This document shows positions 11,715-42,648 of a DNA stretch of 48,749 nucleotides, piece by piece. The position numbers and the translations under genes are program-made. This DNA is from an uncultured Candidatus Saccharibacteria bacterium (lineage in GTDB: Bacteria > Patescibacteriota > Saccharimonadia > Saccharimonadales > CAZLKQ01): NCBI GenBank assembly GCA_964560175.1, contig CAZLKQ010000001.1:1-48749 (forward strand). The letters run 5' to 3'. The notes below the pieces were generated by a model. That model was not told where the DNA came from, did no database searches, and was given only the letters and a program-made list of their open reading frames with translations. The first letter of the stretch is position 1; each line of letters begins with the position of its first letter.

Positions 11715-12152
11715 CTATTGAGCTCTCGCGAAGGAAATAAGGGCTATCCCGCTGACAACAAGTGCTATTCCTAAAAGATGATAGACGGTAAGTGTTTCTT
11801 TGAGAAAAAGTACGCTCAGTAAAGTCGACAAAGCGATAGATGCTCCGAAAACCAGAGGTGACACATAGGACAGGTTGCCGCCATACTGAAATATTTTGTG
11901 AAAGGCTATGGCAAACATTGCAATCCCAAGCCCAGCCAATGAAGCGTAGACAATGCCACTTCGAGTTGTCGTCAAAAGGTTTCCTTTATTTGCCACTTTG
12001 ATCATGAGAAGTGACAACGGGATAACTACTGCGACAAGGTTTACAATTACGGGGACTAATCCACCATCAATTTTTCCTCCGGCTTTAGCAGAGAAAAATT
12101 GGAAAAACGCATATCCGATGGTTGCTACAATAATTAAAATCCACATTGCCAT
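11715..12152 (-). CDS. Small EamA/DMT-like membrane transporter
   Basis: 145 aa, 4-5 hydrophobic helices, single EamA-like half-domain architecture. Confidence 0.55.
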   Translation of the reverse strand: MAMWILIIVATIGYAFFQFFSAKAGGKIDGGLVPVIVNLVAVVIPLSLLMIKVANKGNLLTTTRSGIVYASLAGLGIAMFAIAFHKIFQYGGNLSYVSPLVFGASIALSTLLSVLFLKETLTVYHLLGIALVVSGIALISFARAQ

Positions 12153-12153
12153 T

Positions 12154-12768
12154 TTATCCGGCTCTCATAAATTCGATCATGTTGTCGCGTTGAGTAGAGT
12201 CAATTTTTTGTTCTTCAGCAAGAATTGAGAATACTTCTGTCATAGTCATAGCAATATCTATCGTGTAGCCTGCTTTTTCCACAATATCCTTACCGCCCAT
12301 TTCTCTATCTAAAAGCAAATAAAATCCAACGACTTCAAGCTTACAAGCTTTAAATTGTTCAAGCGATTCCAATTTAGAATCACCTTTTGTGACGAGGTCA
12401 TCAATAATAGCGACCCTGTCGCCTTCTTTCCAATCGCCTTCAACCGACTTGCCCTTACCATGGTCTTTAATTTTGGCTCTTGGCTGGATCAATGGACGAT
12501 TTGTTTCATATCCAACTCCGGTAGCAATAGGTGTGCCTGCTTCAGGAATACCTGCAAGAAAAACGTTTTGAGGTAACCCCTCAAGCATTTCTGCATAAAT
12601 TGCGGTAATTTTATGGAAGGCTTCTGGATGTGATTGGACAATACGCAAGTCAATATAAAAAGGCGATACTACTCCGCTTTTGAGAGTAAATTCACCAAAA
12701 GTGAGTATTCCAAACTGGTGCAAGCTAACAGCCACATCACGTTTTGCCCTATCAGAAACTTTACTCAT
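12154..12768 (-). CDS. pyrE: Orotate phosphoribosyltransferase
   Basis: PRTase motif [14 protein letters not shown]. Start trimmed to ATG 12768 (GGAGGA SD), overlapping the pyrF stop as ATGAGTAA. Confidence 0.87.
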
Positions 12769-13561
12769 TCTGTCCTCCTCTAAATTTGTTAATTTCAGCG
12801 TGTAATTTTTTTGCTTCTTCGCGTGGGTTATCTGCAAAGATTATACCCCTTGCTGAATTTACAATTAGTCCATCACCCGAACTATTTTGCCCAGCTTCGA
12901 TAACTGCCTTTGCGTCGCCACCCTGTGCACCGACACCCGGGACAAGAAAAGTCATGTCGTCGCCGACTAATTCACGGATTTCACGCATTTCCTTCGGATA
13001 GGTTGCGCCGACCACAAGTAGACAATTTTTGTTGACGTTCCATTCGCTTGCTATTTTGCCTGCCAAATATTGGTAGTAGGGCTTTCCCTCGACCACAACG
13101 TCCTGAGTATCTTCCACCCCAGAGTTTGATGTGCGGCACAAAATAATCATCCCTTTGTCCTCTAAATTCAAAAAAGGCTCTAAGGCTTCTCGCCCCAAAT
13201 ATGGGTGGAGAGTGGTGGCGTCGGCGTTTAAATAATTGAAAATATAGTCTACGTACCCGTCATTGGTGTTGCCAATGTCAGCGCGTTTTGCATCAACAAT
13301 TACTGGTATTGCAGAGTGTTTATTGTGGATGTAGGCAATAGTTTGCTGCAACTGGGCGATGCCTTCGGCGCCATTGCCTTCGTAGAAAGCCGAGTTTGCC
13401 TTGAAAGCGCAGACTAAATCCGCAGTTGCGTCAACAATCTCCTTATTGAAATCAAATTGGCTTTTGCCAGCTGGCAATTTGTGGGTATCACTGTCCAAAC
13501 CGACACACAAAAGCGAATTATTCTTATCGACGCTTACACTCAGCTTCTTTAAAAAATTCAA
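12761..13561 (-). CDS. pyrF: Orotidine-5'-phosphate decarboxylase
   Basis: [18 protein letters not shown] motif; 266 aa. Confidence 0.85.
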
Positions 13562-14136
13562 ACGGCCGCCTTTTCTAACTCAGCTAAAACTTCAGTAACT
13601 AGTGCTTCTGAGTCATCGTTGAATATGATTTTCCCTTGACCTTCTTTATTTATCTTTCGAGCCAGTCCTTCAAGTTCGTCAGCTATGCCGCCAGTACCTG
13701 TTAAAACTCCAACGATTTTCTGCATATCAACAAGGTTAGTGAATTCGTTTAGACTTCCCCATCGACCCGATATTATTATGCCGGCATCACATGTAGCGGT
13801 GGATATTACATTTCGATACTTCATACAAGCCCTTTTATCCTTCGCAAAAGGGTAATCTTTTGGTATGTATATCAATTTATCATAGATAGTGAAGTCATCG
13901 TCGGGCCAATTCTGTTTTTGTCCATCTAGATCAAACATTGGTGAAAATCCCCACACTTCGACACCGTGCTTGCGAGCTTCTGAAGCGACTTCGTATGGCA
14001 GGCCCGAGCATGCACCGGTCACAATAATGAGTTTTGCCGCATACTTGCCAAGAACTTCCCCCAATTGTTTAGCTTTAGGCATAATTTCAGCCATTTCACC
14101 AGCTCCAGAACCAAAGACTCCAACCTTATATTTCAT
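13558..14136 (-). CDS. LOG/TIGR00725-like Rossmann-fold protein
   Basis: VGVFGSGAG N-terminus; TGTGGIADE resembles the PGGxGTxxE motif of the LOG family; 4-nt overlap with pyrF. Confidence 0.5.
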   Translation of the reverse strand: MKYKVGVFGSGAGEMAEIMPKAKQLGEVLGKYAAKLIIVTGACSGLPYEVASEARKHGVEVWGFSPMFDLDGQKQNWPDDDFTIYDKLIYIPKDYPFAKDKRACMKYRNVISTATCDAGIIISGRWGSLNEFTNLVDMQKIVGVLTGTGGIADELEGLARKINKEGQGKIIFNDDSEALVTEVLAELEKAAV

Positions 14137-22412: not shown

Positions 22413-22808
22413 ATGGCCAATTTAATAAAAGGTTTGAGGAGCGAAGTTCTCGAACAAATCGAGGCGAATACCTCACGAGAATGGGGCCATCAATCGGTGC
22501 CAAAGGGAGAACTTGCATACAAAAGCTACATGCATCTTACTAGGAGTGGTCATTTAACTCTTTGTGTCATGGATCTGTTTGATGCAGAAAGTCATACACA
22601 CCATGCAGTCGAGGTTATAGATAACCGCCGCAAAAGTGGCATCCACCGCAGTCTTGCTGCATACGACCCGATATTTTCGACCGAGGGTTCTGAGCTGATT
22701 TTTGAGGTTGCTGACAAAATGACAGTGCCATACGATGGCCGGCCAATGGAGCCGGGCGAACTCGAAGAAATGCTCAAATATATTCAAACTCTCGATCATA
22801 CGGCATAA
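22413..22808 (+). CDS. Hypothetical protein (131 aa)
   Basis: Starts 5 nt after the tig stop; no family recognised. Confidence 0.5.
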   Translation: MANLIKGLRSEVLEQIEANTSREWGHQSVPKGELAYKSYMHLTRSGHLTLCVMDLFDAESHTHHAVEVIDNRRKSGIHRSLAAYDPIFSTEGSELIFEVADKMTVPYDGRPMEPGELEEMLKYIQTLDHTA

Positions 22809-22985: not shown

Positions 22986-23507
22986 ATGACAGATATAGAG
23001 CAAGACTCTTCAAATTGGTTTGAGTTCAATGTTTCCGGCCTAGGCTTCGAAGTAGGTGGCAGAGCTAGCCCAGAGCTGTATAAAACTATTTCCGAATATT
23101 TAGTAGCAATAGCGGATCGAGAACCAGCGAAGGGAGATGAAAGCTCCCGTGTATTTCATCCAAGTTATTCAACGATTGTGGAACTCTCATCCGATGAGCA
23201 AATTACTTTAGTAACCTATAGCAACCTAGAACAATTTCAGCAAAGCTCAGAAAAGTGGCATAAAAGTCCACGCACCTTTGAACGCCTACATAACTCAATG
23301 GCGAGAGCTAAGTCACAACCAACCATGCCGTCCGAATTTCCAAGAATCCTAAGGGTTATTGATCGAAATGGAAAAGAATATAAGGGCTTTCATGTTGAAG
23401 GATTTATCTCAGCAGTCAAGAATGGTTGGCTTTGGGATGTTAGTAATCTAGGGGAAAAGTCAGTACATTTTGCACAGGATTTTACCAAAGAACTTGAAAT
23501 GAACTAG
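22986..23507 (+). CDS. Hypothetical protein (173 aa)
   Basis: Has its own promoter; no family recognised; AT-rich. Confidence 0.55.
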   Translation: MTDIEQDSSNWFEFNVSGLGFEVGGRASPELYKTISEYLVAIADREPAKGDESSRVFHPSYSTIVELSSDEQITLVTYSNLEQFQQSSEKWHKSPRTFERLHNSMARAKSQPTMPSEFPRILRVIDRNGKEYKGFHVEGFISAVKNGWLWDVSNLGEKSVHFAQDFTKELEMN

Positions 23508-31895: not shown

Positions 31896-32309
31896 GTGCC
31901 TACAATTAACCAATTAGTCCGAAATCCGCGCAAGAGCGCCAAGGCTAAATCGAAATCTCGGGCTCTACATAGCACCTATAATGCTCTGAAGATTCGCACC
32001 TATGAGAAAAATTCACCGCTGAAGCGTGGTGTTTGTATCAAAGTCACCACCAAGACACCAAAGAAACCAAACTCAGCGCTACGCAAAGTCGCCCGTGTCC
32101 GTTTGACCAATGGCCAAGAAGTCTGGGCCTATATCGGCGGCGAAGGCCACAATCTCCAAGAGCACGCAGTGGTTTTGATCCGAGGCGGTCGAGTACCAGA
32201 TCTGCCTGGAGTTCGTTACCATATTGTTCGAGGATCATTGGATCTCCAAGGCGTTCAAAATCGCAAAAACGGCCGCTCTAAATACGGCGCAAAAAAGGCC
32301 AGCAAATAA
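31896..32309 (+). CDS. rpsL: 30S ribosomal protein S12
   Basis: PTINQLVR...; [15 protein letters not shown]; GTG start. Confidence 0.96.
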
Positions 32310-32542
32310 TGGGCGAGGCAATGTGTCCAATGTTTGCAGACTGTAAGGCACAAAGTATCTCGAGAGAATACAGAGTGGGTTTAAACTCAGAAATGCCGCT
32401 TGGCATCAAGTATGTGATTACAGATATATGTAGGCTGGCAATTGAAAAACGGACGCAAAGCTGTCCAATTGTAAATATGAGTACAGAAGAGGAAATCCTT
32501 CTCCTACAAAAACGCGCAAATGGAGATTATAATGCCGCGTAA
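32309..32542 (+). CDS. 77-aa Cys-containing orphan ORF filling the rpsL-rpsG spacer
   Basis: TAATG overlap with the rpsL stop; 11-nt overlap with the rpsG start; 4 Cys (CPMFADC ... C ... SCP). Confidence 0.5.
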   Translation: MGEAMCPMFADCKAQSISREYRVGLNSEMPLGIKYVITDICRLAIEKRTQSCPIVNMSTEEEILLLQKRANGDYNAA

Positions 32543-33017
32543 AGTTACCAAATCGCTAAGACGAAATATTGCTCCAGATCGGATTTACGACTCTATCCTA
32601 GTACAGAAATTGATCAATAAAGTCATGCTGGCCGGAAAGAAAACTTTGGCAGAAAAATTAGTCTATTCTGCCATGGTAAAAGCTGCAGCTAATCTCAAAT
32701 CTGACAAACCGCTAGAAGTACTAGAAACCGCTATCAAAAATATCCGACCGCAACTGGAAGTGAAATCTCGCCGGATCGGTGGAGCAAACTACCAGATTCC
32801 TTTTGAAATCAAAGGCGAACGCCAAACCCATAAAGCTTTAATGTGGTTTATTGCTGCTGCCCGAGACCGCCGTAAATCAATGGGCAAGGACTTTGATGAA
32901 GCTCTAGCCGCTGAAATTGTCGATGCTTTCAATGAAACCGGCTCAGCTGTCAAGAAAAAAGAAGACACACATAAGATGGCTGAAGCGAATCGCGCCTTCG
33001 CCCACTTCGCTAGGTAA
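32532..33017 (+). CDS. rpsG: 30S ribosomal protein S7
   Basis: MPRKVTKS...; GGANYQIP; GGAG SD; start trimmed from ORF-track 32520. Confidence 0.95.
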   Translation: MPRKVTKSLRRNIAPDRIYDSILVQKLINKVMLAGKKTLAEKLVYSAMVKAAANLKSDKPLEVLETAIKNIRPQLEVKSRRIGGANYQIPFEIKGERQTHKALMWFIAAARDRRKSMGKDFDEALAAEIVDAFNETGSAVKKKEDTHKMAEANRAFAHFAR

Positions 33018-33022
33018 TTAAG

Positions 33023-33394
33023 ATGTCGGAAATGACTAGTGCTCTTCCCTGCAGTGATTGCCCTCGAAAGGCCAACCGTTTTGTAATCCGCACTTCAGGA
33101 ATAATATTAGAGGAACAAGGTGGAGTTATGTACGGCTATGTAAAACCTGACCGAAGGTCTCTTGTAATGGGTAGAATAAGCACCGCAGACTTAGAAGCGA
33201 ATTACCAAGATTTGGCTGCTTCTATCTATTTATGTGAAAGCCCAGTTACAATAACGCAACCAAAAGCCGGCCTACTGGGGCGGGTGGGCTTTAAGCGGGA
33301 GGTATTGGCATGCCCCGCGTTAAGGGAAGCAGTGGTAGAGAGAACTATTGCACGTATTGAAGAAATTAATAATCCTGAGGCGGGACATGACTGA
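33023..33394 (+). CDS. Orphan ORF A (123 aa) with PCxxCP motif
   Basis: LPCSDCPRKANRFVIR...; same strand, 5 nt after the rpsG stop. Confidence 0.55.
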   Translation: MSEMTSALPCSDCPRKANRFVIRTSGIILEEQGGVMYGYVKPDRRSLVMGRISTADLEANYQDLAASIYLCESPVTITQPKAGLLGRVGFKREVLACPALREAVVERTIARIEEINNPEAGHD

Positions 33395-33638
33395 GCTACT
33401 TAAAACTTTTGAATTTCCAGAAGCATGCGTTGGAAGTTGCCCCCAGATCGGCAGGTGGTTAAGCACCGTGGAACACTCAGATCCAGAAAGCTGGCGATAT
33501 ATAGAAGCAGTGAGTAAACTTAAAGGCTTGTCAGACATAGCCTGCGCTACTCAGTGTGGAGGACCGTGGGATGACCAAACAGAAATGGCCCCAGTCCTCT
33601 ATTGTTCAGGTAATCCAGGAAGTGATTACGGAGTTTAA
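33387..33638 (+). CDS. Orphan ORF B (83 aa), Cys-rich
   Basis: ATGACTGA overlap with ORF A; CVGSCP and CATQCGGP motifs. Confidence 0.5.
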   Translation: MTELLKTFEFPEACVGSCPQIGRWLSTVEHSDPESWRYIEAVSKLKGLSDIACATQCGGPWDDQTEMAPVLYCSGNPGSDYGV

Positions 33639-33639
33639 A

Positions 33640-34161
33640 ATGGCTGAGACACAAGAAATCGCCGTTGCCAGACCGCATATACCTTATACGGATGTTCCAG
33701 AATTAATAAAATGGCCATGCGAAAATTGCCCCAATAGGGTTAGTGTGACGGCTCGTATCAAGAGTGATTCTTTGCAAATTATGGACGGAGAATTGCAGAT
33801 TGAGGGAGTATGGGTGCCAGAAAATATTGATCCTCTGTCGCAACGAAAAGTAATTCTGGTCCAGTTAGGAAAGAAAGTAGCGGACTTATATGCTGAGGGA
33901 TGCACAGGTTCTCGTATCGAGGAAGATTGGTCACCGAATCATCGAGTCAGGCTGGATTACAACAGATGCAAATCCGAGTCGAGTGACGTACTCGAAAGAC
34001 TTGGTCGAGCCATGACCCCTGGCTGGGCTGGTTATTACGCTTTTGGGATGGGACTTATTAGGGAACAGATTTATACCGAGCCAGAACTTGCTATGTTAGC
34101 AGCGGAAAAAGCCAAATCCAAAGAAGAAGAGCGCCGAAGGCGAATGCGGGGACCTTACTAA
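33640..34161 (+). CDS. Orphan ORF C (173 aa) with PCxxCP motif and basic C-terminus
   Basis: GGAG SD, start AAATGGCTGAG; WPCENCPNRVSV resembles ORF A; its stop directly abuts the fusA ATG. Confidence 0.55.
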   Translation: MAETQEIAVARPHIPYTDVPELIKWPCENCPNRVSVTARIKSDSLQIMDGELQIEGVWVPENIDPLSQRKVILVQLGKKVADLYAEGCTGSRIEEDWSPNHRVRLDYNRCKSESSDVLERLGRAMTPGWAGYYAFGMGLIREQIYTEPELAMLAAEKAKSKEEERRRRMRGPY

Positions 34162-36231
34162 ATGGCTAAGACTCCGCTGGATAAAATCAGAAACATTGGG
34201 ATTATCGCGCATATCGATGCTGGTAAAACCACTACGACCGAAGCTGTTTTATACCGAACCGGACTAAAGCACAAGATCGGTGCTGTACACGAAGGTGAAA
34301 CTACTACTGACTGGATGGAGCAGGAACGCGAGCGTGGCATCACCATTACCTCGGCTGCTGTCACTTGTTTTTGGAAAGATCACCAGATCAATATCATCGA
34401 CACACCTGGCCATATCGACTTTACCGTCGAAGTCGAGAGATCTTTGCGCGTACTCGATGGCGCCATGACGGTTTTCGACGGGAAAATGGGAGTCGAGAGC
34501 CAGTCTGAAACAGTTTGGCGACAAGCCGACAAATACGGCGTGCCGCGAATCTGTTTTATCAACAAGATCAACCAAACCGGCGGTGATTTCTATAAATCCC
34601 TTGAGTCCATCCATACGCGTCTGACCAAACACGCTTACCCGATCCACCTGCCGATCGGCTTTGAGCAGTCAATCAATGGTGTCATCGACCTGATCGACAT
34701 GAAAGCCTACACCTACAAGGACTTCACTGACAAAGAATTGGTCGTCGGCGAAATACCCGAAGACATGAAAGAAAAGGCCGCCAAATACCGCTCTCATCTG
34801 GTCGAGGCTGCTCTGGGTGCCGATGACGACCTACTGATGAAATACTTGGACGGCACCGAAATCACCAATGAAGAGCTCAAATCTTGCATCCGCAAATCGA
34901 CGATCAAAGGTGACTTTTTCATCGTCTCGGGCGGCGATGGCCGGGGTGTGATCGTCGAGAAACTGCTCGATCTAATTGTTGACTATCTGCCAAATCCGCT
35001 GGAAGCCGGCTCAGTCTTTGGCACTCATCCCAAAACAGGTGATGAACTGGAGCGCAAACCCGATGTCAATGAACCGTTTTCCGCTCTGGCATTCAAGATC
35101 GCCACTGACCCCTTTGTCGGCAAACTGGCCTTTTTCAGAGTTTATTCCGGCTCGATGAAAGCCGGCAGTTACATCATGAATGCGGCAACCGGTGACAAAG
35201 AACGGGTCGGCCGGATCTTGCGCATGCACGCCAACGACCGGACCGATGTCGAGACGATCGAAGCCGGCGATATCGCCGCCGCGGTTGGCCTCAAAGGCAC
35301 AACTACCGGCAATACATTGTGCGACCCTGCTAACCCAATAATTTTAGAGTCGATCGACTTCCCAGACCCACCAGTTTCGATTGCGATAGAGCCCAAAACC
35401 AAGGCTGACCAAGAAAAAATGTCGATTGCCCTGCAGCGCCTAGCCGAGGAAGATCCGACTTTCCGAGTCCACAGCGACCACGAAACCGGCCAGACTATCA
35501 TTTCTGGCATGGGCGAGCTGCACCTGGAGATCATTGTCGATCGAATGAAAAGAGAATTCAAAGTCGAAGGTAGTGTAGGCCAACCACAAGTCGCTTACCG
35601 GGAGACCATTAAAGTTCAGACTGAGATAGAGGGTAAATATATCAAGCAAACTGGCGGTCGCGGCCAATATGGCCATGTCGTACTCCGGCTCGAGCCGCAA
35701 GAAGCCGGAGTAGGCTTCGAATTTGTCGATGCCATCAAGGGTGGTGTCGTGCCACAAGAGTACCGAAGCGCTGTCAAAAAAGGTATCGAAGATGCCATGG
35801 CAAATGGCGTCATTGCCGGCTACCCAGTAGTTGATGTCAAAGTAACTTTGACTGACGGCTCGTACCACGAAGTCGACTCCTCCGAGCTAGCCTTCACAAT
35901 GGCCGCTAGCCAAGCTTTACAAGCCGGAGTCAAAAAGGCTAACCCAGTACTACTGGAGCCGGTAATGAAAGTCGAAGTAGTGACTCCTGAGGAATTTATG
36001 GGTGACGTCATCGGCGACCTGAACGGCCGTCGCGGCCGGATCGAAGAAATGGAAGACCGGGCCGGCGTCAAAGTCGTCCACGCTTTCGTGCCACTTGGTG
36101 AAATGTTTGGCTACACCAATGATATCCGTTCGATGAGTCAAGGCCGAGCCAGCTCAACAATGGAGCTTGACCATTACGGCGAAGTACCGAATAATGTGGC
36201 CGAAGAAATCATTGCAAAACAAACTAAGTAG
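34162..36231 (+). CDS. fusA: Elongation factor G
   Basis: [14 protein letters not shown], NKxD; 689 aa. Confidence 0.97.
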
Positions 36232-36248
36232 TCATATTTTAGGTATAG

Positions 36249-36578
36249 ATGTCAAAAGATGTAGAAATTGAAGATAGGGCACAAGGCTACATCGATGCCT
36301 GTGCTTTCCTTGATCTAGAATATGCTAACTGTGACATAGTCGCTCAGGAATTTCGGGAAGTTTATGAGCGACGTAGTGTAGAACTGCTCGGCGCTTTTCA
36401 TGTGGACACGCTGAGAGTTACCACAAAAATGGGTGCCCAAATCCTACATACTACAGGGGTATTAGTGTCGATGGGTCCATCAATAGTGCATAGGCGTAAT
36501 AAATTTAGGCAAGTTATCGATGATGAGTCAGCCGGCCTGGCTGAAGCAGAAGAAATAATTGCCAAAAAAGGCAAATAA
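36249..36578 (+). CDS. Orphan ORF D (109 aa), apparently derived from the fusA 3' end
   Basis: C-terminus AEEIIAKKGK* versus [13 protein letters not shown]; N-terminus VEIEDRAQG..CAFLDLE versus [20 protein letters not shown]. Confidence 0.5.
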   Translation: MSKDVEIEDRAQGYIDACAFLDLEYANCDIVAQEFREVYERRSVELLGAFHVDTLRVTTKMGAQILHTTGVLVSMGPSIVHRRNKFRQVIDDESAGLAEAEEIIAKKGK

Positions 36579-36579
36579 A

Positions 36580-37125
36580 ATGATAAGAGGATCTCTTTAC
36601 GAATCAACTTCCTATCCTGTATTGGATTTGTTGGTCGGAGTTGAGAGTAATCCTGCCGCCGATACACTTTTGGCCCAGATCGAGACCGCGGCTGCAGTAG
36701 ATGTAAAGCTAAGACTAGACTACAACGCTACGCTGCCAAAACTCAACTTGGCGGGCGTTATTGACTTAATCGCTATGGGCGACGAAAGCCGGCTGAAAAA
36801 ATACGCACAACTAAAATTACTCCACGATGCCGTATCAACTCCTGAAGATTTAGCTTCAAAGAATGATTCTGTTGTCACCGAGTTGGAGTTGGCGGTGTCT
36901 GGCTTGCAGCAACGCAAAGGGGAGAGTCGAAGAGTGCGCCTTTTGCATAAACGAGCAGCAAAAACTCTCGACTATTACCAGAAGCACATGAGACGGCGCC
37001 CGTTTTCTACGCCCAATCTACTTACACTGCTTGATAGAGATTCAGAGATGTTTCTAGGGGCAGTTAATTTTATTGGCGAGTTGTCGTTGGTTGAAAGGAA
37101 AATAACAAAATCATTTTCGCCTTAA
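36580..37125 (+). CDS. Orphan ORF E (181 aa)
   Basis: ATG 1 nt after the ORF D stop; no family recognised. Confidence 0.5.
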   Translation: MIRGSLYESTSYPVLDLLVGVESNPAADTLLAQIETAAAVDVKLRLDYNATLPKLNLAGVIDLIAMGDESRLKKYAQLKLLHDAVSTPEDLASKNDSVVTELELAVSGLQQRKGESRRVRLLHKRAAKTLDYYQKHMRRRPFSTPNLLTLLDRDSEMFLGAVNFIGELSLVERKITKSFSP

Positions 37126-37130
37126 CAGGG

Positions 37131-37159
37131 TTTACAACTGGGCTCAACCCCTGTACAAT
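37131..37159 (+). promoter_or_regulatory. Candidate promoter for tuf
   Basis: TTTACA, 17-nt spacer, TACAAT; AGGAGA SD lies before ATG 37237. Confidence 0.55.
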
Positions 37160-37236
37160 GCGTAACATAAATGAGGCATGTATTTGATTGCCTCGAAAAA
37201 GTTAAATAATAGTAGTAACAATCAGGAGAACAGTTA

Positions 37237-38421
37237 ATGGCAAATTTTGATCGCAGCAAACCACATGTAAACGTCGGTACCATGGGACACGTCGACCACG
37301 GCAAAACCACCCTGACTGCCGCTATTACGCACACCCTGAGCAAGCGATTGCCATCAGATATCAACAAACCGATCAATTTTGACCAGATCGACAACGCGCC
37401 CGAGGAAAAAGAACGCGGCATCACGATTGCTGTTTCACATCTGGAATATGAGTCTGAGAAGCGCCACTACGCCCACGTCGACATGCCCGGTCATGCCGAC
37501 TATATAAAGAATATGATCACAGGTGCCGCCCAGATTGATGGCGCCATTCTGGTTGTCTCAGCTGCTGACGGCCCAATGCCACAGACCCGTGAACATGTCC
37601 TACTGGCCCGCCAAGTCGGTGTGCCCTCGATCGTTGTCTTTCTAAACAAAATGGACATGGCTGATCCAGAACTAGTGGAGCTCGTCGAAGCCGATGTCCA
37701 GGAACTATTGACCAAGTACGAGTATGACGGTGACAAAACTCCGATTATCAAAGGTTCCGCCAAGAAAGCTCTCGAAGGCGATGAGAAGGAAATGGACAAC
37801 ATCATGGAGCTGGTCAAGGCTATCGATGAGCACATTCCTGAGCCAAAGCGTGATCTAGACAAACCATTCCTGATGGCCATCGAAGACGTTTTCTCGATCA
37901 AAGGCCGGGGCACCGTCGCTACAGGACGTGTCGAGCAAGGTATCGTCAAAGTCAATGAAACGGTCGAAATCGTCGGGATTCGTGATACTAAGAAATCAGT
38001 AGTTACCGGTGTTGAGATGTTTCGAAAAAACCTCGATCAAGGCCAGGCTGGCGACAATGTCGGTATTTTGCTACGGGGAATTGAAAAAGAAGATATCGAG
38101 CGCGGCCAAGTTTTGGCAAAACCCGGCACTATCACTCCACACACCGAATTTGACGCTGAAGTCTACATCCTGACAAAGGAAGAGGGCGGTCGTCACACGC
38201 CGTTTTTCAAAGGCTACAAGCCACAATTTTACTTCCGCACCACTGATGTGACTGGTGAAGTTGAGCTACCGGCTGATACAGAAATGGTCATGCCAGGTGA
38301 CACCATTACCTTCAAGGTCAAATTGATCCAAGCTATCGCTATGGACCAAGGCCAACGTTTTGCTATCCGCGAAGGCGGCAAGACCGTCGGCGCTGGCGTC
38401 GTAACGAAAATTAACAAATAA
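37237..38421 (+). CDS. tuf: Elongation factor Tu
   Basis: [18 protein letters not shown]; 394 aa. Confidence 0.97.
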
Positions 38422-38428
38422 TTTTCGA

Positions 38429-38458
38429 GTAATTAGTAACTAGGAATTAGCAATTAGT
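38429..38458. repeat. One-armed heptamer array GNAAYTA x4
   Basis: gtaatta gtaacta ggaatta gcaatta; near-identical to the array at 9735-9770 (gtaatta gtagcta ggaatta ggaaata). Confidence 0.7.
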
Positions 38459-38743
38459 ATGACAGAAACTTCACGACAACAGACCCCAGAAGAAATGACT
38501 CGATCAAGAATTGCTCTTTACCGTCATGCTGCTGCTGGTGGATACGATGTTCATCAATGGGGTACCAAGGAAGGCGAGATATATCATGAAGTTTTTGCGC
38601 AATCCGGTGATGAAATCCCAGATGCAAATTTTACTTATCTAGAGCCAATTTTGGAGCATGAAATAGTATATCTTGGCTCGTTGACTCCCAAAGGAGCAAA
38701 AGAGATTGCTGATCAATTGGAGGAGATTTTACTAAATGGCTGA
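38459..38743 (+). CDS. Orphan ORF F (94 aa)
   Basis: No family recognised; its stop lies inside a copy of the rpsJ start sequence. Confidence 0.5.
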   Translation: MTETSRQQTPEEMTRSRIALYRHAAAGGYDVHQWGTKEGEIYHEVFAQSGDEIPDANFTYLEPILEHEIVYLGSLTPKGAKEIADQLEEILLNG

Positions 38744-38755
38744 GGAAGTAAAATC

Positions 38756-39037
38756 ATGAGTTTGACGACAACTGATTTTCAAGAAATTCGAACTATTGTT
38801 CGTGAGGAAGTTGAAAGCATTGTAGAAGCGAAATTGAATCCACTCAGAAATGAGCTACAGGCTCTTCGTAATGATATAAAAGAAATTTACAACAGGCTGG
38901 TTAAACTCGAATCGCCTGTATTTACAAATAAGGAATTTAATAAATTACCACTAGAGAAAAGACTTCTGACATTAAATTCTGATTTGTTGGCGATGGCTAA
39001 AGAAATTGGTTTATCACTTCCAAGGAACACAAATTAA
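38756..39037 (+). CDS. Orphan ORF G (93 aa), coiled coil, paralog of ORF 7565
   Basis: MSLTTTDFQEIRTIVREEVES versus MNLTNDDLKSIKKVVSDSIDE. Preceded by the 7-codon remnant MAEEVKS*, coupled through an ATGA overlap. Confidence 0.55.
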   Translation: MSLTTTDFQEIRTIVREEVESIVEAKLNPLRNELQALRNDIKEIYNRLVKLESPVFTNKEFNKLPLEKRLLTLNSDLLAMAKEIGLSLPRNTN

Positions 39038-39391
39038 ATGGCTGAGGAAATTCGCGTACAACAGATGGATGAGCCACAGGATTGGGTGAAGAAACTGCGT
39101 GGAGCTGACAAGTTAGCATACGATGAGGTTCGCGAGGAGAGTATCGGAGAAATAGCAGAGGTTTACAAACAGCGGCTAAAAGAATTTGTTGATGAAATTA
39201 CTGAGATTGGAGCGGAGGAAGCCATCGCTCATAGAGCAACAAGGCTAGCAACTAATACCAGAGACTCTTTTGAAGCCGGCATCCAAGTTGGCATGGACAG
39301 CGAACGTGAGTATCGGCAACAACTGGCTCGTAGAGAAAGAGAAGAGCATGCCTCCTTTCAGAGAAATGTCATCGGAAATTGGGCTGGCTGA
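39038..39391 (+). CDS. Orphan ORF H (117 aa), acidic, helical
   Basis: Starts with ATGGCTGAGGAA, identical to the rpsJ start; TGATG overlap with rpsJ. Confidence 0.55.
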
Positions 39392-39729
39392 TGGCTGAGG
39401 AAACTGCAAAAGTAGTTCCAGCTGGCGTACCAAGGATCAGGATTCGACTGAAGGCTTATGATCACAAAGTGATCGACCTGTCGGCCAAGCAAATTATCGA
39501 TACTGCGGAGCGCACTGGTGCTACAGTGGCCGGACCGATTCCGTTGCCAACCAAGCGGAGTGTATACACGGTTATCAAGAGTCCTCATGTCTATAAAAAG
39601 GCTCGTGAGCAATTCGAAATGCGCGTACACAAACGACTGATTGATATCAGTAATCCGACTCCAAAAACCATCGATTCTCTCCAGAATCTGTCTCTACCTG
39701 CCGGCTGCGACGCCGAAATCAAAATGTAG
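39391..39729 (+). CDS. rpsJ: 30S ribosomal protein S10
   Basis: [21 protein letters not shown]...GPIPLPT; start trimmed to MAEE. Confidence 0.93.
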
Positions 39730-39878
39730 TGGCAATAACTCCCTTTTGTGACAGGTGCGGCGAGGAACTAAAGAAATTTGGGGCAATCCTGTTTAGCCCG
39801 CCAAATGCTAAAAGTGTTGTCAAAAAACTACATGTATGCGTTGATTGCTATAAAGAAATAGTTAAAACTTTCAAATAG
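39729..39878 (+). CDS. 49-aa zinc-ribbon micro-protein
   Basis: GTG start overlapping the rpsJ TAG (TAGTG); [13 protein letters not shown]...VCVDCYKE has two CxxC pairs; below the ORF-track cutoff. Confidence 0.45.
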
Positions 39879-39958
39879 GTATTGCTCATGCTTGCAAATC
39901 GGGTAAGTATATACCAAGCTAATCGAATGAATGAAAAAAAAGGTTAAAGTAGTAATTT

Positions 39959-40336
39959 ATGACCGCTGAACATAATATTAACCAAGCGCAGCTATATTAT
40001 GAAATACGTGAGCAATTTACAGAAATGCGCGAATCATTTTCAGCTGAGCGGACAGCATACTTAGAACTATTACTCTCCTTGGAAGGTGTTCCCGTAAGTG
40101 CTTCGTATAGGTTTCGGTATGTCAAAGAACCCGGGGAGTTTGGTCGCGGTGGACATCTAACAGACTTATTACAACCTGTTGATAGGCAAGCTGTGAAAGT
40201 AGTCATCTCGGAAGTAGGTGAATCAAATTTAGGTGTGCGTATAGTAAGAGAAAACGGATCACCAAATAATTTTGTTGAGATTGTTGCTTTTGACGACTTT
40301 GAATTGTTAGAGATAAGTAGCAACAACGCAAACTAA
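39959..40336 (+). CDS. Orphan ORF J (125 aa)
   Basis: No family recognised; AT-rich; flanked by the 16-nt repeat GTATTGCTCATGCTTG. Confidence 0.5.
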   Translation: MTAEHNINQAQLYYEIREQFTEMRESFSAERTAYLELLLSLEGVPVSASYRFRYVKEPGEFGRGGHLTDLLQPVDRQAVKVVISEVGESNLGVRIVRENGSPNNFVEIVAFDDFELLEISSNNAN

Positions 40337-40472
40337 TCGCAAAAGTATTGCTCATGCTTGTCACATATTGACAGTGATATAATTTTGGTATGAATCCCGT
40401 TAGAACTAAGTATTTTATCGAAGACAAAACCTGCCGCTTTTTAATTAGCGTAAAAAACGGAGTTCTAACGGG

Positions 40473-40739
40473 ATGAATAACGTATCTTTGTCCTTACCAT
40501 TTCTCATTCAAGGCGATAGCCCACAGCACAAGGCCATGAGGCGTCATCAGTTGTATGATTTACTCGAAAAAGACAATGAACTGCTAGCGGATATTCTCGA
40601 CCTTCAACGCAAGCTGGCTAAGAAAAAAGATAAGGAGTCTCGCGAATTAGTTGACGAGCTCGGTGAAATCGTTCAGGAATTTCTCGGTCTGAATCGTCAA
40701 AAATTAGAACTTACCAAGGCCATCAATAAAGATACCTAA
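40473..40739 (+). CDS. Orphan ORF K (88 aa), coiled coil
   Basis: Its start is sequestered in a perfect 14-bp inverted repeat and coupled (ATGA) to a 28-codon uORF at 40390-40476. Confidence 0.5.
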   Translation: MNNVSLSLPFLIQGDSPQHKAMRRHQLYDLLEKDNELLADILDLQRKLAKKKDKESRELVDELGEIVQEFLGLNRQKLELTKAINKDT

Positions 40740-40741
40740 TT

Positions 40742-41053
40742 ATGCCCACGATACCTAAACGTCAATTTGACGAGGTGGGCAACGAATTAGCTGGTTTACA
40801 ATCGGAAACCATAGAGAGTAAATCAGCAGATACGCCGATAGTCGAACAGACCAGAGATGTTATAGCGCGTACGGTGGTGCAAACTTTCTTTTTGCTGCTA
40901 GGTGTAATTCTGATCGGCGTGCCGGTCTACAATGCCAATGTAGCCAGCGATCTCCGACTTGATCTACCTGATCTGCTGCAACAATATTCAGCGATTTTGG
41001 GCCCTGTGCTAGGCTTTGTCATCGGCTACTATTTCAAGAGCAAAAATGACTAA
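40742..41053 (+). CDS. Orphan ORF L (103 aa), two TM helices
   Basis: VVQTFFLLLGVILIGVPVY and ILGPVLGFVIGYYF. Confidence 0.5.
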   Translation: MPTIPKRQFDEVGNELAGLQSETIESKSADTPIVEQTRDVIARTVVQTFFLLLGVILIGVPVYNANVASDLRLDLPDLLQQYSAILGPVLGFVIGYYFKSKND

Positions 41054-41486
41054 TCTCGAAGGCTGCAAATTTTGTGATCCTAAAAGTGAAGATCTAAGAC
41101 CACGCTTAATTAATCTCGGCAGCTGGTGTTATTCAGCTTTATCCAATCCTCGCATAACTCGCGGACATGCTCTGGTGATTCCGAACCGACACGTTGAGGA
41201 CCCAACTGAAGTTGATGAAAGAGATTTTATATACATACAAAGAGAGATCATAAAATTACAGAGGAAAATTCTGCTCGAAATTGCTCCGGGTGTTGATGTT
41301 TGGCAAAAATATCAGCCGTTTGTCGAGGAAGGGCACGCAGGAACAAAAATGAACCATGTTCATTATCACGTGATTCCCAGAAATCCTGCCGACGGTTTAC
41401 TGATGTCACCCGAACCAGGAACCGATACATTCTCGCCGCTTTGCGAAGAAGAGCGTATCGACATGCTCGAAATTTTGGGACCATAA
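41046..41486 (+). CDS. HIT (histidine triad) family protein
   Basis: HVHYHVIPR triad; ATGACTAA overlap with ORF L; start trimmed from 41016. Confidence 0.78.
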   Translation: MTNLEGCKFCDPKSEDLRPRLINLGSWCYSALSNPRITRGHALVIPNRHVEDPTEVDERDFIYIQREIIKLQRKILLEIAPGVDVWQKYQPFVEEGHAGTKMNHVHYHVIPRNPADGLLMSPEPGTDTFSPLCEEERIDMLEILGP

Positions 41487-41511
41487 AATCTGTATCTGCT
41501 AAAATACGCTT

Positions 41512-41766
41512 ATGACTAACCGTAAGCGTGAATCAAACAGTGTCTATTTTCTGAAAATTGTCTTTTTCTTCGTGATTGGCACCATTTGGATTCGCTTTGG
41601 GGCCGATTCCAGAACTGGAGGAGGTATTCCAATTGGTTTGCTGTTGGGGATTATTTTTGCCAATCACGACCACTTCCAAATCGACCAAAAAATTGAATTT
41701 GCGATCCTGCTGATTGCTGCCATCCTAAGCTTTGTTTTCCCTATCGGCGCAGTCATAGTCGTCTAA
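41512..41766 (+). CDS. Orphan ORF N (84 aa), membrane protein
   Basis: Three hydrophobic segments; start ATGACTAAC echoes the HIT gene start ATGACTAAT. Confidence 0.5.
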   Translation: MTNRKRESNSVYFLKIVFFFVIGTIWIRFGADSRTGGGIPIGLLLGIIFANHDHFQIDQKIEFAILLIAAILSFVFPIGAVIVV

Positions 41767-41841
41767 TCTGCCTGTCCCGCAACTTTTCCTGAGTGTAGTA
41801 ATAAGCAATCTGATTATGAAATCTCAAGAAACGGTGCGGGA

Positions 41842-41871
41842 TTGACACATCTGTTGTACATCTGGTAGTAT
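41842..41871 (+). promoter_or_regulatory. Candidate extended -10 promoter for rplC and the downstream S10-operon genes
   Basis: TTGACA, 18-nt spacer, TGgTAGTAT; about 150-nt structured leader follows. Confidence 0.5.
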
Positions 41872-42024
41872 TTAATCAATTGCACTCGGCTGCGTTTATT
41901 TGGATTGCGGCAAGAGACTGGTCTGTAAGTTCTACGATAAATCAGGACCAAAGATCCTGAGCGAAGTCGAAGGATACTGCAAATCAGCCTCCAGTGCAGT
42001 TTGACTTAAAATTAGGAGATAGAC

Positions 42025-42648
42025 ATCAAAGCTATCATTGGCACCAAGATCGGTATGACCCAGATCCTGACAGAGGATGGTACGGCTGTGCCTGTAACCT
42101 TGGTCCATGCCGAGCCAAACGTCGTTACCCAGAACAAAACAGATGAAGCCAATGGCTACAACGCCGTCCAGCTAGGCGCCGGCCGAGCCAAAAGACCCGC
42201 CAAACCCCAAGAGGGACATGCCAAGAAAGCCGGTCTAGACTTTACCCCGCGGATTATGCGCGAGGTACGCGACCTCGAGTTTGACCCCGAAACTATAAAA
42301 CCCGGAGCCAAAGTCGAAGTCACGAACTTTGAAGTCGGCGACGAAGTCGATGTCACGGGAACTAGCAAAGGTAAAGGCTTCGCCGGAACCGTCAAACGTC
42401 ATAATTTTCTAACCAGCCCAAAATCTCACGGCGGTAAAGGCTATATCCGAAAACCTGGCTCGATCGGCTCTATGTATCCGCAAAAAGTCATGAAGGGCAA
42501 ACGAATGGCCGGCCGCATGGGCTTTGATAAAACTACCATCGTCGATCTCAAAGTCGTGCTAGTAGACGCCGAAAATAATTTACTCGGTATTAGAGGCGCC
42601 TTGCCTGGGCCGCGCAAAGGCACAGTCATAGTGCGAGGTTCTAAATAA
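42025..42648 (+). CDS. rplC: 50S ribosomal protein L3, probable non-AUG (ATC) start
   Basis: The conserved N-terminus (I)[13 protein letters not shown] is in frame upstream of the first ATG (42055); AGGAG SD lies 6 nt before ATC 42025; in-frame TAG at 42013. Confidence 0.88.

Follow-up and report, generated by a model that had tools for sequence, protein, structure and literature searches.

Our study examined a stretch of 48,749 nucleotides (nt) from an uncultured Candidatus Saccharibacteria bacterium (contig CAZLKQ010000001.1 of assembly GCA_964560175.1), hereafter the window, and revealed that the series of translation genes rpsL-rpsG-fusA-tuf-rpsJ-rplC in the str/S10 cluster is interrupted at all five of its junctions by 15 extra open reading frames (ORFs; o1 to o15) of 49–181 amino acids (aa), every one of them on the + strand. 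On balance, these ORFs are probably young or acquired accessory genes, which were inserted at permissive boundaries of the str/S10 cluster and are expressed by coupling to their neighbours, and they are best read neither as a set of ribosomal proteins nor as a recognizable mobile cassette system. Three of them (o4, o14 and o15) are clearly real, established genes, and the other twelve are without a detected relative.

Inserted ORFs at the junctions from rpsL to rplC

The six core genes all lie on the + strand within the stretch 31896–42648 and are followed gap-free by rplD, rplW and rplB. The first-pass annotation of this DNA had described every junction from rpsL to rplC as interrupted by same-strand ORFs, and the same arrangement of 1 + 3 + 2 + 3 + 6 ORFs was seen here (Table 1). 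The start/stop overlaps that it had listed alongside these ORFs were likewise all present, namely TAATG at 32309, ATGACTGA at 33387, TGATG at 39389–39393, TAGTG at 39729 and ATGACTAA at 41046, and the distance from an inserted ORF to the gene that follows it is −11 to +17 nt for 10 of the 14 spacers. The 8-nt overlaps at 33387, 41046 and 38735 are alike in form (CATGACTGA, AATGACTAA and AATGGCTGA, respectively), and in each case the stop codon of the upstream ORF is one that the ATG-RCT-RA start of the next gene contains in its +2 frame.

Each gap is filled to 0.79–0.99 of its length by + strand ORFs of at least 45 aa, compared to a mean of 0.11–0.28 after shuffling, and the observed value was reached in only 0–1 of 1000 shuffles per gap. 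Furthermore, a periodic Markov model trained on the window's other genes found the annotated frame to be the best of six for all 15 ORFs, with coding scores that lay below those of the core genes; o10 is missing from the gene calls of the Logan annotation. The Logan assembly of run SRR6868923 contained two contigs that were identical to the window over the junctions, and this agreement of two assemblies, both derived from a single sample (the same sequencing run), indicates that the arrangement is not an artefact of one assembler.

The best matches to tuf of the window were Saccharibacteria metagenome-assembled genomes, at 76–89 % identity, and junctions were measured in 160 fetched loci, comprising 28 close Saccharibacteria loci and 132 from other bacteria (individual loci are given below as L and a number). 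Among the close Saccharibacteria, 48 of 79 rpsL to rplC junctions (61 %, median 669 nt) were at least 400 nt long, compared to 46 of 351 (13 %, median 81 nt) in the other bacteria (Fisher p = 1.8e-17), and the premise of the first-pass annotation that these genes abut therefore fails for Saccharibacteria. Enlargement was seen at rpsG-fusA, fusA-tuf, tuf-rpsJ and rpsJ-rplC, with rpsL-rpsG mostly tight, and the genes rplC-rplD-rplW-rplB were always tight in Saccharibacteria loci, where none of the 38 junctions from rplC to rplB reached 400 nt.

The contents of the junctions vary by species, and an all-against-all comparison found almost no shared families. One-third of the junction ORFs of relatives lie on the opposite strand, and their large junction genes encode CTP synthase, adenylosuccinate synthetase, lactate/malate dehydrogenase, amylases, a lysyl-phosphatidylglycerol synthase domain protein and a thioester adhesin; no transposase, integrase or recombinase was found among the 10 large junction genes tested. 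Small ORFs between fusA and tuf in three loci (L031 9571–9830, L039 8954–9325 and L083 9556–9870) look by eye like antitoxins of the Phd/YefM or ribbon-helix-helix type. For 14 of the 15 window ORFs no counterpart was found in the approximately 160 related loci, and positional orthology of junction ORFs across species was unsupported except for o4 and o15. Compact loci exist (L010), and the closest relative of the window, L082, is nearly compact, which suggests that most of the window's fillers are gains, although this is tempered by the distance of L082 (tuf is 89 % identical, yet fusA only 69 % and rpoC 64 %). The synteny comparison proposed in the first-pass annotation has thus revealed loosened junctions with unrelated contents, in which most of the window's ORFs were not found. 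In cultivated Saccharibacteria (TM7x), the tuf and rpsJ promoters are used as separate strong promoters (PMC10633639). Taken together with the long junctions across the lineage, with the conserved promoter-like boxes and leader that relatives have upstream of rplC and with the promoter-like sites before tuf and rplC in the window (see below), this means that the str/S10 'operon' of Saccharibacteria is a loose cluster of several units.

The inserted ORFs also differ in composition from the rest of the window. The first-pass annotation had judged the inserts to be AT-richer than the core genes from spot counts, and this was borne out by G+C content at third codon positions (GC3), with a mean of 0.38 for the 15 ORFs versus 0.51 for 41 other genes (Mann–Whitney p = 1.4e-5). 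In 25 relatives, GC3 of the gap ORFs is much like that of the core genes (mean difference −0.005), so the deficit is peculiar to the window genome. GC3 of many Saccharibacteria is 0.25–0.40, and the low GC3 of the inserts fits a recent arrival from AT-richer donors. The concentration of ORFs without a Pfam match is also local, at 14 of the 15 inserted ORFs within 10 kb versus approximately 7 of the 27 genes in the window's first 32 kb; among the downstream ribosomal protein genes, which the Pfam scan did not cover, no such ORF was apparent.

Table 1. Core genes, inserted ORFs and sequence features between rpsL and rplC of the window
Feature	Position	Strand	Remarks
rpsL (S12)	31896..32309	+	Core gene; identity to its counterparts in related loci 81–85 %
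o1, 77 aa, four Cys	32309..32542	+	Begins on rpsL stop (TAATG); 11-nt overlap with rpsG; singleton cluster
rpsG (S7)	32532..33017	+	Core gene
o2, 123 aa, CSDC motif, orphan	33023..33394	+	Not in L162; no Pfam, PHROGs, PADLOC or viral-contig match
o3, 83 aa, Cys-rich orphan	33387..33638	+	8-nt overlap with o2 (ATGACTGA); not in L162
o4, 173 aa, Cys4 protein, basic C-terminal tail	33640..34161	+	Abuts fusA (TAAATG)
fusA (EF-G)	34162..36231	+	Core gene; start AAATGGCTAAGAC matches o4 start at 13/14 positions
fusA 3' end (AEEIIAKQ), direct-repeat copy one	36199..36222	+	Repeat family D14
o5, 109 aa orphan	36249..36578	+	Final 10 residues AEEIIAKKGK* copy fusA C-terminus; body unrelated to fusA
fusA 3' end, diverged second copy	36546..36569	+	20/24 nt; equal distance to stop codon
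o6, 181 aa orphan	36580..37125	+	Self-match only among protein clusters
Promoter-like site TTTACA-17-TACAAT	37131..37159	+	78 nt upstream of tuf; consensus match only
tuf (EF-Tu)	37237..38421	+	Core gene
o7, 94 aa orphan	38459..38743	+	Stop within 12-mer copy 1 (AATGGCTGA)
12-mer ATGGCTGAGGAA, copy 1	38736..38759	+	Opens 7-codon mini-ORF MAEEVKS*
o8, 93 aa orphan	38756..39037	+	Predicted helical; GC3 0.27
o9, 117 aa orphan	39038..39391	+	Starts with copy 2 of ATGGCTGAGGAA (MAEE, as rpsJ); TGATG overlap into rpsJ
rpsJ (S10)	39391..39729	+	Core gene; starts with 12-mer copy 3; no own Shine–Dalgarno sequence visible
o10, 49 aa, two CxxC motifs	39729..39878	+	GTG start on rpsJ stop (TAGTG)
o11, 125 aa orphan	39959..40336	+	Best coding frame
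Hairpin, 29-nt arms (inverted repeat I2)	40389..40479	+	Between o11 and o12
o12, 88 aa orphan	40473..40739	+	Best coding frame
o13, 103 aa orphan	40742..41053	+	C-terminal half hydrophobic
o14, 146 aa HIT-family hydrolase	41046..41486	+	Pfam HIT
o15, 84 aa membrane protein, three predicted helices	41512..41766	+	Saccharibacteria family
Promoter-like site TTGACA-18-TAGTAT, TG before it	41842..41871	+	Head of leader before rplC
rplC (L3)	42025..42648	+	Conserved N-terminus encoded from 42025 (ATC), 30 nt upstream of first ATG (42055)

Two further places in the window are of note. The genes tig and clpP adjoin in many bacteria, and here their interval holds two same-strand ORFs without a family match, at 22413–22808 (131 aa, GC3 0.43) and 22986–23507 (173 aa, GC3 0.34), so the habit is not strictly confined to translation genes. 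On the minus strand, a low-GC3 run (0.34–0.46) at 11715–14136 encodes an EamA transporter, a phosphoribosyltransferase, pyrF and a SLOG/LOG-like protein, and is embedded in a pyrimidine-biosynthesis neighbourhood (prs, pyrF, pyrD, pyrC-like and pyrB) that is unusual for a reduced epibiont.

Conserved genes and orphans among the inserted ORFs

A HMMER search of 1.84e9 cluster representatives found exactly one true homologue of o4, designated P0010 (49 % identity, E 2.7e-43). It is encoded on L162, a short contig from another run (SRR9865950), where rpsG ends 5 nt before it and fusA directly adjoins it, and L162 represents a distant relative, with rpsG 63 % and fusA 67 % identical to the window. 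The cysteines C27, C30, C88 and C110 are invariant between the two proteins. Selection on orthologues was among the checks suggested in the first-pass annotation and, when run for o4, gave a proportion of non-synonymous differences (pN) of 0.35 that is lower than the synonymous proportion (pS) of 0.78, the latter being saturated; o4 evolves approximately 1.5 times faster than rpsG or fusA. The homologue in the same slot, the invariant cysteines and the excess of pS over pN indicate a conserved, selected protein with a fixed position. In L162, o2 and o3 are absent and rpsG is followed directly by the o4 homologue, which indicates that o2 and o3 are later additions. L162 also has a Cys-rich ORF of 87 aa whose start, like that of o1, falls on the rpsL stop, and the similarity of the two proteins was not significant (z = 1.1, no BLASTP hit). 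The AlphaFold2 model of o4, built with its single homologue, was too poor to be used (predicted local distance difference test score, pLDDT, 47).

The sole recognizable family in the first-pass annotation was a HIT protein, and Pfam agrees (1 of 15 ORFs). This ORF, o14, scored 38.7 bits against PF01230 (HIT), compared to a cut-off of 21.5 (E 1.6e-9), with a weak NCBIfam match to HinT, and both its CxxC (CKFC) and its histidine triad (HVHYHVI; NHVHYHVIP in translation) are intact, so that it has the domain above the gathering score and the HxHxHxx motif by which HIT proteins are recognized. Its position in the rpsJ-rplC gap was not shared by relatives. In o15, by comparison, position is conserved: tblastn found homologues at 27–51 % identity in at least 10 Saccharibacteria loci (L082, L002, L004, L007, L103, L009, L005, L089, L092 and L013), always between rpsJ and rplC, which indicates that the separation of these two genes is old. 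Members of this family are approximately 85–110 aa long, with a basic N-terminus, three hydrophobic segments and the motif (S)HEHFQxDRKIEYAxLL, all of which are found in o15. Despite this conserved position, nothing seen in the sequence links o15 to the ribosome.

The remaining twelve ORFs gave no tblastn match in the approximately 160 related loci, and the ten ORFs that were looked up proved to be singleton clusters seen only on the window contig. They are called orphans here in the sense that no relative was found in the searches listed, of which the deep homology searches covered o4 and o6 only; o6 found only itself among 5.8e9 protein clusters. Apart from o14, none of the 15 ORFs matched Pfam, toxin–antitoxin families included, and neither PHROGs (nothing significant) nor PADLOC gave a match for the 10 ORFs tested with each, o10 and o12–o15 lying outside the PADLOC set. 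Searches of the orphans by tblastn against 50,697 phage records and against plasmid records were negative, three scans of viral contigs revealed no relative, and, two marginal leads aside (see below), there was no match in Rfam, NCBIfam or PDB sequences. No orphan matched a ribosomal protein or translation factor in Pfam, NCBIfam or PDB. Paralogy among the orphans, notably between o2 and o4, which have a common PCxxCP motif, was unsupported, and no second copy of any inserted unit was found in the window.

Two faint resemblances emerged. Residues 14–47 of o10 align with residues 130–163 of human TK1 in PDB (17/33 identical, E 8e-4), the TK1-like segment FGAIL..P.A.SVVK...VC..C lying at 39771–39869 as a possible tdk relic next to rpsJ. 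This is an internal segment of only 33 residues, with no P-loop part nearby and a silent Pfam model, and o10 is at most a relic of a thymidine kinase gene. Residues 8–95 of o6 (36601–36864) align weakly with full-length HPr (E 0.014), with His15 and Ser46 replaced and the Pfam HPr model silent; the AlphaFold2 model of o6 alone had a pLDDT of 46 and was not used. Given multiple testing and the silent Pfam models, neither lead is reliable.

Duplicated gene termini and putative expression signals

The 12-mer ATGGCTGAGGAA occurs in three exact + strand copies, at 38736, 39038 and 39391, within 660 nt and nowhere else in the window, where we estimate approximately 0.006 exact matches by chance. The copies bracket o8 and o9, copy 2 being the start of o9 and copy 3 the start of rpsJ (MAEE); rpsJ of relatives likewise begins MAE or MAD. 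The stop of the mini-ORF that opens with copy 1 overlaps the start of o8, and the GAGGA of copy 1 doubles as the Shine–Dalgarno (SD) sequence of o8. Beyond the 12-mer, the bracketed units resemble neither rpsJ nor one another, at either the DNA or the protein level. A tandem duplication of rpsJ was considered as the source of o8 and o9, the units measuring 302 and 353 nt and rpsJ 339 nt, and because the units are unrelated, a diverged duplication of this kind is ruled out. The simplest history starts from an ancestral overlap of o7 with rpsJ (AATGGCTGA); DNA was then inserted twice, directly behind codon 4 of rpsJ, and the 12 nt were regenerated each time.

A second duplicated terminus was found downstream of fusA, the tail of which (GCC GAA GAA ATC ATT GCA AAA CAA) recurs in the tail of o5 as GCA GAA GAA ATA ATT GCC AAA AAA, giving two occurrences of the pattern in the window versus 0.00 expected. 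An exact 11-mer search found no terminal duplications in relatives. None of the window ORFs scanned with Pfam or NCBIfam (48.7 kb) has an integrase, transposase or recombinase domain, a repeat search revealed no inverted repeats at the termini of the units, and attC-like sites were not seen, as no inverted repeat recurs at the ORF borders and the sole strong hairpin is that at 40389–40479.

In front of this hairpin (−41.4 kcal/mol, z = −5.25) lies an extended −10 box, TGATATAAT. The hairpin buries the start codon of o12 together with its SD sequence, and it could act in translational control or as a terminator. The SD sequence of rpsG (GGAG) sits within o1, and several downstream genes lack an SD sequence of their own, among them rpsJ, after o9 (TGATG), and fusA, after o4 (TAAATG); with its overlap, rpsJ seems to depend on the translation of o9. 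Many relatives (L005, L007, L009, L011, L013, L089 and others) carry the motif AGAGGTTACGAnATnGCACAnAAGGAG 10–35 nt upstream of rpsJ, and it is absent in the window and its closest relatives.

Upstream of rplC, at least 12 relatives (L001, L002, L005, L007, L009, L010, L015, L083, L088, L089, L090 and L103) have conserved sigma-70-like promoter boxes, TTGAC(A/G)-17/18-TAnnAT, which the promoter-like site at 41842–41871 of the window matches, and a leader of approximately 150 nt with a long-range helix (CTTGGTG...CACCAAG), in which 5 of the 10 predicted base pairs have compensatory changes. The leader matches no Rfam family and the window's copy (41842–42024) aligns poorly; as judged from these sequence features, it is a candidate, putative ribosomal-protein autoregulatory leader. 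In the window, rplC apparently starts at a non-canonical codon, since the ATC at 42025 aligns with the ATG of relatives and has the SD sequence AGGAG upstream. L3 of relatives begins MKALLGTKIGMT, and the window encodes this conserved N-terminus in frame after a TAG stop at 42013–42015, with no ATG, GTG or TTG before 42055.

Probable origin and significance of the inserted genes

In the reading that we favour, the 15 ORFs would be real or recently real genes that accumulated by insertion at gene boundaries of the str/S10 cluster. The four junctions from rpsG to rplC admit additional DNA and their fillers differ between species, the twelve ORFs without a detectable relative presumably being young, fast-evolving or horizontally acquired accessory genes. 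The fillers would be transcribed with their neighbours, and their translation may be coupled via spacers of 0–17 nt or overlaps of 1–11 nt; o9 would borrow the first four codons of rpsJ, and the apparent dependence of rpsJ on the translation of a filler would make the relationship run in the reverse direction too. As the route, we infer that incoming DNA recombined while anchored on the highly conserved genes that flank the junctions, its other end being joined illegitimately, and such events would leave copies of gene termini behind as scars. Saccharibacteria have been shown to be naturally competent and to recombine by double crossover (PMC10633639), and this makes flank-anchored recombination plausible.

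Several points weigh against such a history. The low GC3 could stem from weak codon-usage selection, rather than from foreign origin, and the searches of phage, plasmid and viral-contig sequences, all negative, gave no donor or source for any orphan. As no such duplications were found in relatives with exact 11-mers, the proposed insertion mechanism rests on two loci of one genome, and the 12-mer could be kept in part by selection, as it combines a start codon with the SD-like GAGGA. When o4 was searched deeply it did have a homologue, and other 'orphans' may have one too. Finally, exact look-up of tuf, rpsL and rpsJ found the genome in one sample only.

The first-pass annotation had put forward two explanations. 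Under one, the ORFs would be lineage-specific small proteins associated with the ribosome or with translation, several of them zinc-binding, which are encoded with their partners for matched amounts. This would account for their uniform orientation and tight coupling to genes for ribosomal proteins and elongation factors, for the Cys pairs in o1, o2, o3, o4 and o10, and for the Cys-rich ORF in the rpsL-rpsG slot of both the window and L162, as well as for the retention of o4 at rpsG-fusA with its four invariant cysteines, basic tail and purifying selection, the conservation of o15 beside rpsJ and rplC, and the apparent reliance of rpsJ, without an SD sequence of its own, on the translation of o9 through TGATG. 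However, twelve ORFs have no counterpart in approximately 160 related loci, different species have unrelated ORFs at a given position, relatives carry metabolic genes at these junctions and the nearest relative (L082) is nearly compact, while no ribosomal or translation family was matched in Pfam, NCBIfam or PDB and the low GC3 runs counter to the expectation for strongly expressed translation genes. With 14 of the 15 ORFs lacking a counterpart, the explanation does not hold for the set as a whole, for which we consider it very unlikely, and it stays open for o4 only. The other explanation, that of selfish or mobile cassettes at the ends of highly expressed genes (integron-like arrays, miniature transposons, toxin–antitoxin or defence units), is weakly upheld, in that inserted DNA of atypical composition appears to borrow the expression of the operon and is accompanied by scars. 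The terminal duplications (12 nt three times and the 24-nt fusA tail twice) are similar to those that arise at target or attachment sites, the ORFs have a higher AT content than the host and are species-specific and arranged in promoterless, co-oriented series like integron cassettes, and some relatives have ORFs at fusA-tuf that look antitoxin-like by eye. The part that fails is the machinery and the cargo: there is no integrase, transposase or recombinase in the scanned window ORFs or in 10 junction genes of relatives, no attC-like or terminal inverted repeat at borders where most spacers are −11 to +17 nt, no match in PADLOC or PHROGs (10 ORFs each), Pfam toxin–antitoxin families, phage, plasmid or viral-contig sequences, and no unit that is duplicated within the window. 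We consider cassettes very unlikely.

The ORFs could instead have been born in place, from expanded spacers under constant transcription, in which de novo, overprinted or extended frames took their signals from duplicated start and stop regions of neighbouring genes. They are short, AT-rich and without homologues, with some of them (o8, o9 and o12) predicted to be helical or of low complexity, and the reuse of the rpsJ start by o9 and the 7-codon mini-ORF, the reuse of the fusA tail by o5 and the three 8-nt overlaps of one form, in which the upstream ORF ends at the built-in stop of the next start, would all follow; similar properties have been reported for native orphan genes (PMC11293555). 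This scenario would still need a source for approximately 5.7 kb of DNA, which compact relatives show to be extra and which has no residual similarity to neighbouring sequence that would suggest local duplication. Furthermore, in-frame codon-position structure in 15 of 15 ORFs is unexpected for very young de novo genes, and o4, o14 and o15 are clearly old; birth in place is no more probable, in our judgement, than a translation-associated set. The least likely explanation is that most of the ORFs are non-functional, either as decaying remnants of former junction genes, of the kind that relatives still carry there, or as chance ORFs. The genomes of Saccharibacteria are reduced, which would suit decay, as would the alignment of o10 with part of the interior of thymidine kinase (E 8e-4), the weak alignment of residues 8–95 of o6 with a whole HPr domain (E 0.014), other residues standing in place of the His and Ser that can be phosphorylated, the coding scores below those of core genes and the low confidence of both AlphaFold2 models (o4 and o6). 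Yet the gaps are filled by single long frames on one strand with orderly overlaps, free of fragments or frameshifts, there are no partial Pfam matches such as enzyme fragments would give, no similarity to the junction genes of relatives was found, and once multiple testing is allowed for, the resemblances to thymidine kinase and HPr are both marginal, with Pfam models silent.

An extension of the favoured history of insertion at permissive boundaries is that the str/S10 junctions act as a gene nursery, in which new DNA is captured right at the ends of the most conserved and most strongly expressed genes, capture duplicates the start or stop of a neighbour and some newcomers, such as o4 and o15, become fixed as partners of the translation apparatus. 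A newcomer would thereby inherit a working start codon and ribosome-binding site, or a stop, and would be translated at once. We regard this extension as unlikely.

High loads of unknown, lineage-specific genes are well documented for Patescibacteria, in which the ratio of unknown to known genes is the largest (Vanni et al. 2022, PMC9132574; Rodriguez del Rio et al., bioRxiv 10.1101/2022.01.26.477801), and species-specific orphan genes (SSOGs) occur in operon-like contexts (Vakirlis & Kupczok 2024, PMC11293555). The window's ORFs resemble SSOGs in being short, without homologues, poorer in codon usage and situated between conserved genes, and unrelated-looking ORFs sometimes replace SSOGs at the equivalent position in sister species. 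Unlike SSOGs, the 14 Pfam-less ORFs of the window are packed into 10 kb of the most conserved cluster, are co-oriented and coupled to essential genes, and have duplicated gene termini as scars; their GC also lies below that of the host's conserved genes, which in the SSOG study was typical of a virus-like minority only. In common with integron arrays, the window has short, promoterless, co-oriented ORFs after strong expression signals, with atypical composition and a repeat at the borders, but it lacks IntI, attI and attC hairpins, its borders are start/stop overlaps and its repeats are the termini of neighbouring core genes. Phage morons, said to have been described by Juhala et al. in 2000, reportedly have their own promoter and terminator and lie in prophages, and chromosomal transfer hot spots flanked by core genes, of which Oliveira et al. 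are said to have written in 2017, reportedly carry mobile-element genes as a rule. Both share with the window genes of atypical composition between syntenic core genes, in intervals that are reused with other cargo across lineages, but here the intervals lie inside the str/S10 cluster and show neither an own promoter and terminator within a prophage nor mobile-element genes.

Fixed, lineage-restricted neighbours of translation genes offer another comparison. In Bacillus subtilis, ybxF, which encodes an L7Ae-like protein, lies between rpoC and rpsL. Family GU_19737823 is found between rpsF-rpsR and rplI in Pseudomonadales (PMC9132574). As in these cases, o4 (rpsG-fusA) and o15 (rpsJ-rplC) are fixed between translation genes, but the known examples are conserved across an order or more, whereas o4 is seen in two genomes and o15 in at least 10, and no other of the 15 ORFs behaves in this way. 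Likeness to HIT hydrolases, through the HIT domain, N-terminal CxxC and HxHxHxx of o14, concerns one ORF of fifteen, and one whose place in the rpsJ-rplC gap relatives do not share. By the features tested, the array is not an integron, a toxin–antitoxin or defence locus, or a prophage, and it is probably not a transposon insertion.

In summary, orphan and accessory genes between conserved genes were known already, and here they are found inserted in the str/S10 cluster. A limited literature search found no description of the str/S10 junctions as cargo sites across a class, nor of duplicated gene termini around such insertions. The order of str/S10 genes is a widely used landmark, for marker concatenation, binning checks and operon prediction, and in this class cargo can enter at four of its junctions. 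For the study of new-gene origin the locus is unusually clean, as relatives reveal the ancestral state, the inserts are short and some of them carry scars, and these scars show how a newcomer can borrow the start codon or stop region of its neighbour, to the point that an essential gene, rpsJ, now seems to depend on the translation of a newcomer. Further study is merited by the lineage-wide pattern, by the borrowing of start codons, by the way in which rpsJ appears to rely on an orphan and by o4, the conserved Cys4 protein. Both o4 and o15 are nominated as testable small proteins, for which a fixed position beside translation genes is the only functional clue, and genetic tools for such genes are available in cultivated Saccharibacteria.

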